DNA from: an uncultured Chthonomonadaceae bacterium
Lineage (GTDB): Bacteria > Armatimonadota > Chthonomonadetes > Chthonomonadales > Chthonomonadaceae
Direction: 5' to 3'
Assembly: GCA_963835065.1 (NCBI GenBank)
Contig: CAWIEK010000045.1
Location: forward strand, 64,001-128,000
Length of the DNA: 64,000 bases
Shown here piece by piece: positions 26,753 to 28,892 of the stretch. A program made the position numbers and the translations under genes. Every line of letters begins with the position of its first letter. The stretch's first letter is position 1. Below the pieces are notes generated by a model. It did not search any database. It was not told the DNA's origin and saw nothing but the letters and a program-made list of their open reading frames with translations.

Positions 26753-26920
26753 CTTCTTGTTCCTTTCTTATGGAAAACGCAGTAAACCACTCCCTGTCCT
26801 CAATATGTTTGCGTTTGTGCTATGATAATTCCTGTGCAGGGTATGAGCGCGATGCCCTTGCGCTGAGATGTTCAACGAAATTCCACAGTGCGCGATTTCA
26901 AAACACAGGAGGACGCAACC

Positions 26921-27280
26921 ATGAAACATCTGTTCCACACTCTGCTCGCCGCCTCGGCTATCAGCCTGGGCAGCCTGACCCTCAGTCCGGTGTTCGCCCA
27001 GGACAAAATGCAGCCCCCTCATCCGCAGACCGGGAAAATGGCTCCGGGGAAGATGGCTTCCGACAAGATGGCTCCCGGCAAGAAGGATAACCGGGCTTCC
27101 GACGTTTACGTTTGCAAGCCCTGCAAGACCTATTATCCGTCTGCCTCCGCCAAGACGATGGGCTACAAAGACCCGATGGGCCATAAACTGGTACACGCGG
27201 ACAAAGCGCCCGTTGGGTACAAAAACGGCAGCAAAATGTCAATGGGTAAAATGCCGGGCAAAACGTCGGGCAAAATGTAA
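26921..27280 (+). CDS. small secreted Met/Lys-rich protein with KMAPG pentapeptide repeats and CxxC
   Basis: AGGAGG SD, signal peptide ending VFA, GKMAPGKMASDKMAPG, YVCKPC..DPMGH. Confidence 0.8.
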   Translation: MKHLFHTLLAASAISLGSLTLSPVFAQDKMQPPHPQTGKMAPGKMASDKMAPGKKDNRASDVYVCKPCKTYYPSASAKTMGYKDPMGHKLVHADKAPVGYKNGSKMSMGKMPGKTSGKM

Positions 27281-27327
27281 TTTCATCAACGCAACATGAC
27301 AAATCCGGTCACAAGCGCATGTTTGGT

Positions 27328-27354
27328 AAAGGTCCCGCCTCTGGCGGGACCTTT
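27328..27354 (+). terminator. intrinsic terminator-like hairpin
   Basis: aaaggtcccgcc-tct-ggcgggaccttt. Confidence 0.7.
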
Positions 27355-27479
27355 ATATTTTGTCTCTTTTCATCAGATAGCTTTCATAAGTCTACTCGCT
27401 GAGATAGAGCTTCACTTGTGCGCAGAATTTATCAAGGAGGTCTGATAAAATTTTACTGGCTGCGTGGGTTTTCACTGTC

Positions 27480-28892
27480 ATGCGCGTCTTAACAAATAGA
27501 ATGACGAACACAAGCGCACAAAATGAGAAGGCCTGTCAGGAGATTATCCTGGTACGCCGCGCCCAAACCGGCGATAGAGCCGCCTTTGACCGGTTGGCAC
27601 AACATTATCGCCCGCTGTTGTTCGCCCTGGCTTTCCTGCGAACCGGCCACAAGGAAGAGGCCGAAGACCTGGTGCAGGAAGCGCTGACAAAGGCATGGCT
27701 GAAACTGCCCACGCTTACGGATACGGCCCTGTTCCTGCCCTGGCTGAAATCCGTGACGGCCAATGCCTGCATCAGTTGGTATCGTCGCGTGGATAAATTT
27801 CCTCGTTCCCTGGAAGAAGACACGAAGGACACGTTACGAGCAAACAAAGGACTCCCCTTAGAAACGCTTCTGGAACGCGAAAGGCAATGGCGGTTGCAGC
27901 AAGCGTTATGGACGCTGCCGGAAGTCAATCGCCTCGCCTTAGTGATGCGTGTCTGGAAGGGAGCTTCCTACGAGGATATTGCCGCCTTTACGGGAGTTCC
28001 GGCTTCGACCGTAGATGGCCGCATTTATCGCGCAAAGCGACAGTTGCGCCGCCTGCTGCATGATGCCGGAGCTGAGTTTTTCGGGGAAGAACCTCGCCCC
28101 CGGCAGCCAAAGTCACATTTGAATGAATTTTCCCCACAACGGAGCAGCAAAATGACCATTCCAGAAACAACTGCCACTATTCCCCATTGGGAACAAGCCC
28201 TGGCGCTTACCTTGTTCACCCGTCGTTTCTCACTGATGCTGAATGCGGGCGTTACCCTCTCGCGGACGCTGGAACTTCTACAGGATATACCGGCTCCCTA
28301 CGGAGCAGCGGCTCGCGCATTGCGCACACAAGTGGAGGATGGAGCCTGTTTATCGCGGGTAATGTCGGAGCGCCCGGACCTGTTTTCTCAAATCTACATT
28401 GGCATGGTCCGGGCGGGCGAAGTAGGAGGCGTATTGGAAGAAACCGCGCAGAGGCTAAAGAAAGCATTGGCAAGAGAGTGGCATCTTGCCAGCCGACTCC
28501 CGCCTCAGGAAATATCGCTCTTTCTGTTGCTTCCCGCCGACAGGCCTTTGTCCGAGAAGTGGGATTCTATGTCTGCCTATCAACAAACGATGACCTTCAG
28601 CCTCTTCTTCGAGACTTTCGGAACACTGCTTCAGTCGGGCGTTCCAATTCTTCAGGCAATGGAAACTGTCGCCGAACTGTTGCCCCTAAACTCGCGCGAA
28701 GGCTGGATGCAGGCCCGTGAACAAGTAACAACAGGGTTGCCATTTGTGCCGACAATGGCGCGAATGGGTATTTTTCCGACATTCGCGCTGGAAATGCTTC
28801 GGGTAGGCGAGGAATGTGGTTCGCTGGACGCAATGCTGCATAGTTTGGCGGAAGCGTTCGAGGATGACCTGGAATATCAACTACTGCCATAG
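27480..28892 (+). CDS. ECF sigma factor in frame with two T2SS-F/PilC cytoplasmic domains
   Basis: Sigma2 (AEDLVQEA..KAW, F.PWL) and sigma4 (SYEDIA...VP.STV.GRIYRAK); then FTRRFSLMLNAGV..VRAGEVGGVLEE and FGTLLQSGVPILQAM..VGEECGSLDAML. Confidence 0.8.
   Translation: MRVLTNRMTNTSAQNEKACQEIILVRRAQTGDRAAFDRLAQHYRPLLFALAFLRTGHKEEAEDLVQEALTKAWLKLPTLTDTALFLPWLKSVTANACISWYRRVDKFPRSLEEDTKDTLRANKGLPLETLLERERQWRLQQALWTLPEVNRLALVMRVWKGASYEDIAAFTGVPASTVDGRIYRAKRQLRRLLHDAGAEFFGEEPRPRQPKSHLNEFSPQRSSKMTIPETTATIPHWEQALALTLFTRRFSLMLNAGVTLSRTLELLQDIPAPYGAAARALRTQVEDGACLSRVMSERPDLFSQIYIGMVRAGEVGGVLEETAQRLKKALAREWHLASRLPPQEISLFLLLPADRPLSEKWDSMSAYQQTMTFSLFFETFGTLLQSGVPILQAMETVAELLPLNSREGWMQAREQVTTGLPFVPTMARMGIFPTFALEMLRVGEECGSLDAMLHSLAEAFEDDLEYQLLP

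Follow-up and report, generated by a model that had tools for sequence, protein, structure and literature searches.

An apparent variant of ECF regulation: a sigma factor with a soluble PilC-like partner in Armatimonadota

Several groups of ECF sigma factors carry long C-terminal extensions fused to a sigma2 and sigma4 core and have no separate anti-sigma gene. The extension is SnoaL-like in ECF41, ECF56, ECF294 and ECF295, made of TPR in ECF42, Cys-rich in ECF238, transmembrane (TM) in ECF263 and a DUF1835 domain in ECF264, and some extensions are thought to derive from fusion with an anti-sigma factor (available part of PMC8999054). Soluble anti-sigma factors, including the ZAS proteins RshA and ChrR, NepR and the putative Asp23 proteins of ECF286 and ECF292, are encoded at +1, translationally coupled to their sigma factor and served by an upstream self-promoter. 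Proteins of the PilC/GspF family (PF00482), which contain two Cyto-type six-helix bundles, are known to us only as membrane platforms. Coupling of transcription to the state of an assembly machine is familiar from FlgM and sigma28, which form a machine-coupled checkpoint. Pilus motors are in turn targets of small proteins, among them the PilB inhibitors Tip, Aqs1 and CpiA (available part of PMC11656802).

Here we analyse a gene in a window of 64,000 nucleotides from an uncultured Chthonomonadaceae bacterium that touches on all of these systems. It is like the extension-bearing ECFs in its core, its long fused extension and its lack of a separate anti-sigma gene, but its extension has a double T2SSF fold, a type that the available part of PMC7826278 does not list, and across the family it is usually a separate overlapping gene that keeps its own start when fused. 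It resembles the soluble anti-sigma pairs in gene order, coupling, solubility and upstream self-promoter, whereas its partner domain is a PilC/GspF cytoplasmic bundle without an ASD, ZAS or CAS domain, and inhibition is putative. The two bundles and the motifs RAGE.GG, SGVP and GE..G.LD are those of PilC/GspF; unlike PilC/GspF, the protein has no N-domain or TM helices, is encoded outside a pilus operon and falls on its own branch. The likeness to FlgM and to the PilB inhibitors is one of logic and implies no relation in sequence; the present case differs in that the proposed coupler is a copy of the platform domain of the machine itself.

A literature search, with subscription papers largely outside its scope, found nothing that joins ECF or anti-sigma factors with T2SSF, Armatimonadetes, PilB/PilC or WD40/Planctomycetes. 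T2SSF occurs once in the available part of the PMC7826278 supplement, listed in the gene neighbourhood of an ECF group whose anti-sigma factor has TM segments; the available part of PMC8999054 has no mention of pili, and a term search of PMC7671368 gave zero occurrences. The module, in which an ECF sigma factor has a soluble partner derived from PilC, is real and conserved, is apparently undescribed and represents a variant of ECF regulation.

Architecture of the fused gene

Positions 27480–28892 of the window (forward strand) form a single open frame of 470 codons, and the Pfam domains within it bear out the original prediction that an ECF sigma factor is joined to a double T2SSF domain (Table 1). 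The sigma core consists of sigma2 and sigma4 without sigma3 and scores 82.5 bits against TIGR02937 (cut-off 42.9); two T2SSF stretches follow (Pfam, E 8e-32). T2SSF is the only match in the extension, with none of the described ECF extension types (SnoaL, TPR, Cys-rich, TM, DUF1835 or zinc-finger), and a domain search detected no ASD, ZAS or CAS anti-sigma domain anywhere in the fused protein. Against NCBIfam models the PilC-like part reaches 92–111 bits, far under the cut-offs of 401–700; it has the Cyto motifs of PilC, without the N-domain and three TM segments. The AlphaFold2 (AF2) model of the fusion has a mean pLDDT of 78.7 and matches the solved Cyto1 domains of OutF (5nbg), EpsF (3c1q) and PilC (2whn) with Z scores of 15.4–16.5 (15.4 for PilC).

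Table 1. Features of the fused locus and its upstream region (window coordinates)
Feature	Position	Strand	Details
Terminator-like hairpin, closes the upstream gene and insulates the sigma promoter	27326..27356	+	Stem of 14 bp, then a T-rich tail; identified by consensus alone
−35-like box (CGTGGGTTTT) of the conserved ECF-type promoter	27463..27472	+	Window leave-one-out score 27.4; top match in the genome
−10-like box (CGCGTCTTA)	27483..27491	+	Implies a near-leaderless mRNA; no Shine–Dalgarno sequence before 27501
Fused open frame, ECF sigma and soluble double T2SSF	27501..28892	+	463 aa from the likely start; 470 aa from 27480
Sigma-70 region 2	27594..27794	+	Residues 39–105 of the 470-aa frame; Pfam Sigma70_r2, E 2.7e-13
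Sigma-70 region 4.2	27891..28046	+	Residues 138–189; Pfam Sigma70_r4_2, E 2.5e-12
Low-confidence linker; its counterpart in split loci is the C-terminal tail of sigma	28059..28151	+	pLDDT <50 at 208–233
Retained GGAG ribosome-binding site and ATG 28152, likely internal start of a free PilC-like partner	28141..28154	+	Partner of 246 aa
First T2SSF six-helix bundle, Cyto1-like	28191..28505	+	Z 16.5, rmsd 2.1 Å over 105 residues to OutF Cyto1 (5nbg)
Soluble Pro/Trp-containing connector in place of the TM hairpin	28506..28574	+	
Second T2SSF bundle, Cyto2-like, stops before the last TM helix	28575..28883	+	

The repeats are also free of TM helices, as had been predicted. The 19-residue Kyte–Doolittle (KD) maximum of the fused protein is 1.19, compared with 2.8–3.4 in 19/19 full-length PilC proteins, and its C terminus precedes the position of the last PilC TM helix. 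The spacing from RAGE to SGVP is 75 residues, 72 fewer than the 147 of the genome's own PilC, and therefore the TM hairpin is gone. The neighbours are, as the prediction had it, not anti-sigma genes. Upstream lies a small exported-looking protein (window 26888–27280) with Met/Lys/Gly-rich repeats, a CxxC motif, no Pfam match and a terminator at its end; downstream is an aldo/keto reductase. The frame opens at ATG 27480, originally taken as the start. This part of the prediction probably does not hold, because the boxes of the promoter motif (27463–27491) bracket that codon and the start is thus likely to be ATG 27501.

The host genome is 8.0 Mb in size, 92% complete and 57% GC, and the named relatives are Armatimonadota. 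A small open frame elsewhere in the same genome (L106:4223-4570, on contig C2) encodes a single TM-less T2SSF domain.

Comparison with relatives strongly indicates that the fusion is real and conserved and not an assembly artefact. An initial protein search, which took in only proteins of 258–823 aa and was biased towards fused forms, found the three-domain architecture in 15 proteins from four sources, at 50–64% identity. Among the 342 proteins fetched, 24 are TM-less sigma fusions including that of the window, so the architecture is no singleton, and the in-frame fusion persists in these proteins down to about 47% identity. Linker residues 194–225 align without gaps to those of P0002, from an independent assembly (18/32 identical), and differences from the nearest locus fall 73/36/135 on codon positions 1/2/3, as under purifying selection. 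The prediction had warned that one spurious base could have joined two genes. The signs to which it pointed, GGAG (28141–28144) ahead of ATG 28152 and an out-of-frame TGA, are present (with TGAs at both 28120 and 28124), and a two-gene form does exist, in 28 of 37 loci; the artefact itself is unlikely because of the 23 other fusions and the ungapped linker match. Nor do the homologues generally carry TM helices: 104 of the top 150 profile matches have a KD maximum below 2.3. A search of the ESM Atlas returned generic T2SSF clusters only.

A two-gene module across the phylum

Judged from gene order, the fusion is one form of a conserved Armatimonadota module, an ECF sigma factor with its cognate partner, for which the split form is the usual state. 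A profile of the C-terminal part, with the best six candidates per genome scored, gave at least 33 compact matches (E <1e-26) in 32 of 401 phylum genomes. Among 37 loci with a TM-less double T2SSF protein, an ECF gene lies directly upstream in 28, three are fused and six are orphans, so that the same ECF lineage is fused or directly upstream in 31/37. The split genes overlap in 22 of 28 pairs (11 of them by 4 nt), lie within 26 nt in five and are 129 nt apart in one. In the reciprocal search with the sigma factor (401 genomes, E <1e-55), 20 of 22 matches have the partner and the other two have a WD40 domain in its place, so that no sigma gene is solitary; the query was built from module members, and 18 of the 20 paired matches were already in the set. 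The two WD40 loci (L353:1978-3495 and L354:868-3864) encode close sigma relatives that run in frame into WD40 propellers and have a Shine–Dalgarno sequence and ATG at the junction; the +1 slot is therefore exchangeable.

No other neighbour is conserved among the 37 wide loci. Pilus genes are not conserved neighbours, and in its locus context the module is not encoded with an ATPase, prepilin peptidase and pilins. An ATPase gene is nearby in 2/37 wide loci, in one as the pilB gene directly ahead of an orphan partner and in the other facing the module. The partner closest to that of the window (65% identical; L136:3215-3958, on G221:C96) has no upstream sigma gene, although the sequence ahead of its ATG is similar to the junction of the window.

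The soluble proteins form a family of their own. A profile search against 1.84 billion representatives found 104 of the best 150 matches to be TM-less, mostly stand-alone proteins of 230–270 aa, and the family amounts to about a hundred clusters at 50% identity. Pattern scans of genomes and metagenomes, which were flooded by PilC or by other ECFs, contained at least one and at least three family loci, respectively, among the matches listed. In trees, the TM-less domains lie on one side of a branch from membrane PilC with support of 100 and 96, weakened by long branches. Sigma and partner trees agree in 19 of 20 supported sigma splits (L137, which has a large insert, was left out of the paired alignments and broken loci were left out of the sigma alignment), as would be seen with any two genes inherited together. 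Some relatives have more repeats: a three-T2SSF-bundle subfamily with degenerate later bundles (L355:1690-2769, L173, L174, P0221, P0237, P0253 and P0294), again behind an ECF gene where DNA is available, and TM-less proteins with three to five T2SSF repeats (P0270, P0273, P0280, P0283 and P0185), with one Acidobacteriota record among the members of the P0280 cluster.

The prevalence of split genes raises the question of whether the fusion is incidental, that is, a coupled operon that fell into frame, with the free partner still produced from the internal start, the sigma tail tolerated or the module decaying, and assembly error as the extreme case. Split forms are basal in the trees and the fused label changes about eight times, at least three of them forced; the internal start is retained; the module was not found in the two same-genus genomes searched; a frameshift, internal stop or truncation breaks 6/28 split loci; and the length limits of the first search favoured fused forms. 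However, all 12 rows of one supported clade are fused despite differing linker lengths, and the ungapped linker and the codon-position differences described above also speak against this explanation, which is moreover silent on what the partner does. We regard it as very unlikely and as the least likely of the readings considered.

Promoter and probable internal start

A shared motif, CGT(A/G/C)(A/G)GTTTT-N10/11-(C/T/G)GCGTCT(T/A), lies just 5′ of 24 of the 26 sigma genes of the family (L134, at a contig edge, was left out of the count), with leave-one-out scores of 12.7–30.8 bits against a shuffle maximum of 11.1 (n=104). In the genome of the window it scores 28.2 bits here and at most 18.1 before the 41 other sigma genes, and no site above 10.5 precedes the 14 pilus-gene regions. 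A strict pattern in ten module-bearing genomes matched the module's own promoter in eight, with five other matches against four in controls, mostly intragenic; a genome-wide matrix scan likewise showed no regulon excess (three sites of at least 24 bits versus 0–2 in controls). The sigma factor thus probably regulates itself, and the failure of these scans to find target genes beyond the operon fits an output role for the partner equally well.

The next-best, real-looking promoters, on contigs C67 and C44, were considered as specific targets and rejected, as their GTAAC...CGTCTAA motif is also found in relatives that lack the module. The operon promoter may itself be read by a core ECF with that similar motif. 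Across the family, the GTAAC...CGTC(T/C)AA motif (L252 and L253, on C67 and C44, and the homologous loci L269–L321) precedes a membrane-protein/prenyltransferase-like/MoxR operon and a DUF4139-like gene, and probably marks a core ECF regulon. The first gene of the former operon (L252:7537-11626) is in two frames (840 and 775 codons) where most relatives have about 1,300 aa, through either a frameshift or an assembly error.

Fused genes keep the start of the partner. A Met stands at the junction behind purine-rich codons in 24/24 fused proteins, and the Shine–Dalgarno sequence and ATG are kept at the junctions of fused loci L111 and L137, with TTG there in G077; at the DNA level, internal Shine–Dalgarno sequences were judged in four fused loci only. 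The window site before 28152 (−5.8 kcal/mol) is the strongest of 13 in-frame ATGs and is equalled by 13% of in-frame positions, a modest signal when taken alone. Family-wide, the median Shine–Dalgarno energy is −8.3 kcal/mol for partner starts (n=31) versus −2.5 kcal/mol for sigma starts (n=21). We infer that fused genes would give two products, a tethered sigma factor and a free partner.

Possible partner contacts with the sigma factor and with PilB-type ATPases

Judged by locus order and overlap, the partner gene is at +1, co-transcribed with the sigma gene and translationally coupled to it, as expected of an anti-sigma factor. Structure prediction offers indirect support for contact. As a whole-chain score from a 16-row alignment, the pTM of the fusion is 0.67, compared with 0.49–0.53 calculated for undocked halves, which indirectly suggests that sigma packs on the PilC-like part. 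The modelled sigma factor is within 5–7 Å rmsd of SigW and CnrH bound to anti-sigma factors and at about 27 Å from RNAP-bound sigma factors, which is no more than suggestive of a closed conformation like that of an anti-sigma-bound sigma; AlphaFold often gives compact folds for free ECFs. Fold searches with the P0001 model returned no solved ECF–PilC complex among the structures listed, a result that excludes nothing.

Indirect support for a link to the pilus motor comes from proteins in which the family is fused to ATPase parts. A profile of the C-terminal tails of five members has as its top matches six PilB/GspE ATPases among the 31,768 ORFs of the genome (best E 3.6e-13), hhalign gives a probability of 96–97%, and the P0247 model matches the N2D of solved PilB with an rmsd of 1.5–1.8 Å. 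N2D is carried by 18 TM-less proteins, through at least three separate changes on the tree; P0272, P0281 and P0312 also have MshEN, and P0328–P0331 have a whole ATPase. P0191, inside the clade of the window, is N2D-like by alignment only. In an AlphaFold model of PulE6:PulF3, each Cyto bundle contacts N2D (available part of PMC10790770), and MshEN is a c-di-GMP binder (available part of PMC11656802). The genome has pilB, pilT and pilC loci, its own pilC lying on another contig together with ATPase, prepilin peptidase and pilin genes. One of its nine PilB/PilT-family ATPases, at G000:C37:94040-95755, is the sole match, twice, to what we take to be an MshEN-type repeat pattern. A separate protein of 1803 aa, P0332, combines a Ser/Thr kinase, FGE-sulfatase and LRR domains with C-terminal T2SSF domains plus N2D, and so places the PilC/N2D pair in a further signalling protein.

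A locus in a single genome of the 401 (L323, 1–3700 on the minus strand of G275:C123) contains a three-gene operon led by an ECF of a different lineage. Its second gene joins a zf-HC2-like domain (E 0.005, below the cut-off) to a PilB-type ATPase, and its third, which overlaps the second, joins a TM-less double T2SSF to a degenerate ATPase with an altered Walker A. The domain content of this operon shows that PilB/PilC parts were taken up into ECF circuits on more than one occasion, and here it is the ZAS-like domain, not the PilC-like part, that looks like the anti-sigma factor.

Our best reading, offered tentatively, is that the PilC-like protein acts on the sigma factor in the manner of an anti-sigma and that PilB/PilT-type ATPases switch it. 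The sigma factor would use the upstream promoter to transcribe the operon that encodes it, in a positive loop. The partner, whose ribosome-binding site is the stronger and which in fused genes would also be made from the internal start, would hold sigma2 and sigma4 closed. Binding to sigma is proposed because of the pairing, the coupling, the stronger Shine–Dalgarno sequence of the partner, the lack of another brake and the pTM excess; the ATPase N2D is proposed as the input because of the repeated PilB fusions. N2D would dock on the Cyto-like bundles in the way modelled for PulE–PulF and alter the hold on sigma. Sigma activity would then depend on whether the motor ATPase is free or engaged, and in members with their own MshEN and N2D c-di-GMP could be the input.

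As the main rival reading, the same partner could instead be the output of the circuit, a soluble decoy able to stop pilus assembly by binding to PilB/PilT hexamers or by entering PilC trimers. That the operon itself is the only conserved target of the promoter motif would suit a decoy, as would the strength of the partner's Shine–Dalgarno sequence, the six of 37 partners without a sigma gene (one of them directly behind pilB), the WD40 cargo with its own Shine–Dalgarno sequence and ATG in the same slot of close sigmas, and the Cyto motifs kept as in PilC; inhibitors of PilB such as phage Tip and Aqs1 have been described (available part of PMC11656802). A decoy would, however, leave a positive-feedback sigma factor without a brake and the in-frame fusion in 24 proteins and the pTM excess unexplained, and the surface of a decoy should be obstructed by a fused N2D. 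We consider this unlikely.

Somewhat less likely again is a partner that serves as an anti-sigma factor or regulatory extension and merely borrows the PilC fold, the ATPase link having been lost in this lineage in favour of another input, perhaps through the Trp/Pro connector. All of the sigma–partner pairing evidence is compatible with this, the family varies at many surface positions where PilC is invariant, pilus genes do not recur in the neighbourhood and the P0247 model, which carries N2D, has a pTM of 0.59 against 0.54–0.57 if undocked and thus no signal of N2D docking. Set against it are the recurrent fusions to N2D, MshEN with N2D or a whole ATPase across the family tree, including the alignment-only case of P0191, and the equivalents of E314 and E444, which are conserved in 100% and 81%.

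In its fullest form, the ATPase-switched reading describes a new class of anti-sigma factor, which we put forward with reserve: a soluble PilC Cyto1–Cyto2 protein would hold the ECF and release it according to the availability of PilB/PilT or, via fused MshEN–N2D, c-di-GMP, placing a direct, protein-level pilus-motor checkpoint on transcription, with the fused frame yielding both a tethered sigma factor and a free partner. With its promoter predicted, the system lends itself to tests in a laboratory strain. Whatever the role of the partner, the natural soluble Cyto1–Cyto2 proteins and Cyto–N2D fusions are ready constructs for the PilC–PilB interface, which rests largely on models (available part of PMC10790770). 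A soluble PilC family tied to one ECF lineage, together with the fusions to PilB parts, points to regulatory reuse of the pilus-motor interface; if the partner is a true anti-sigma factor, it would add a fold class new to such factors and tie transcription directly to the state of the pilus motor.
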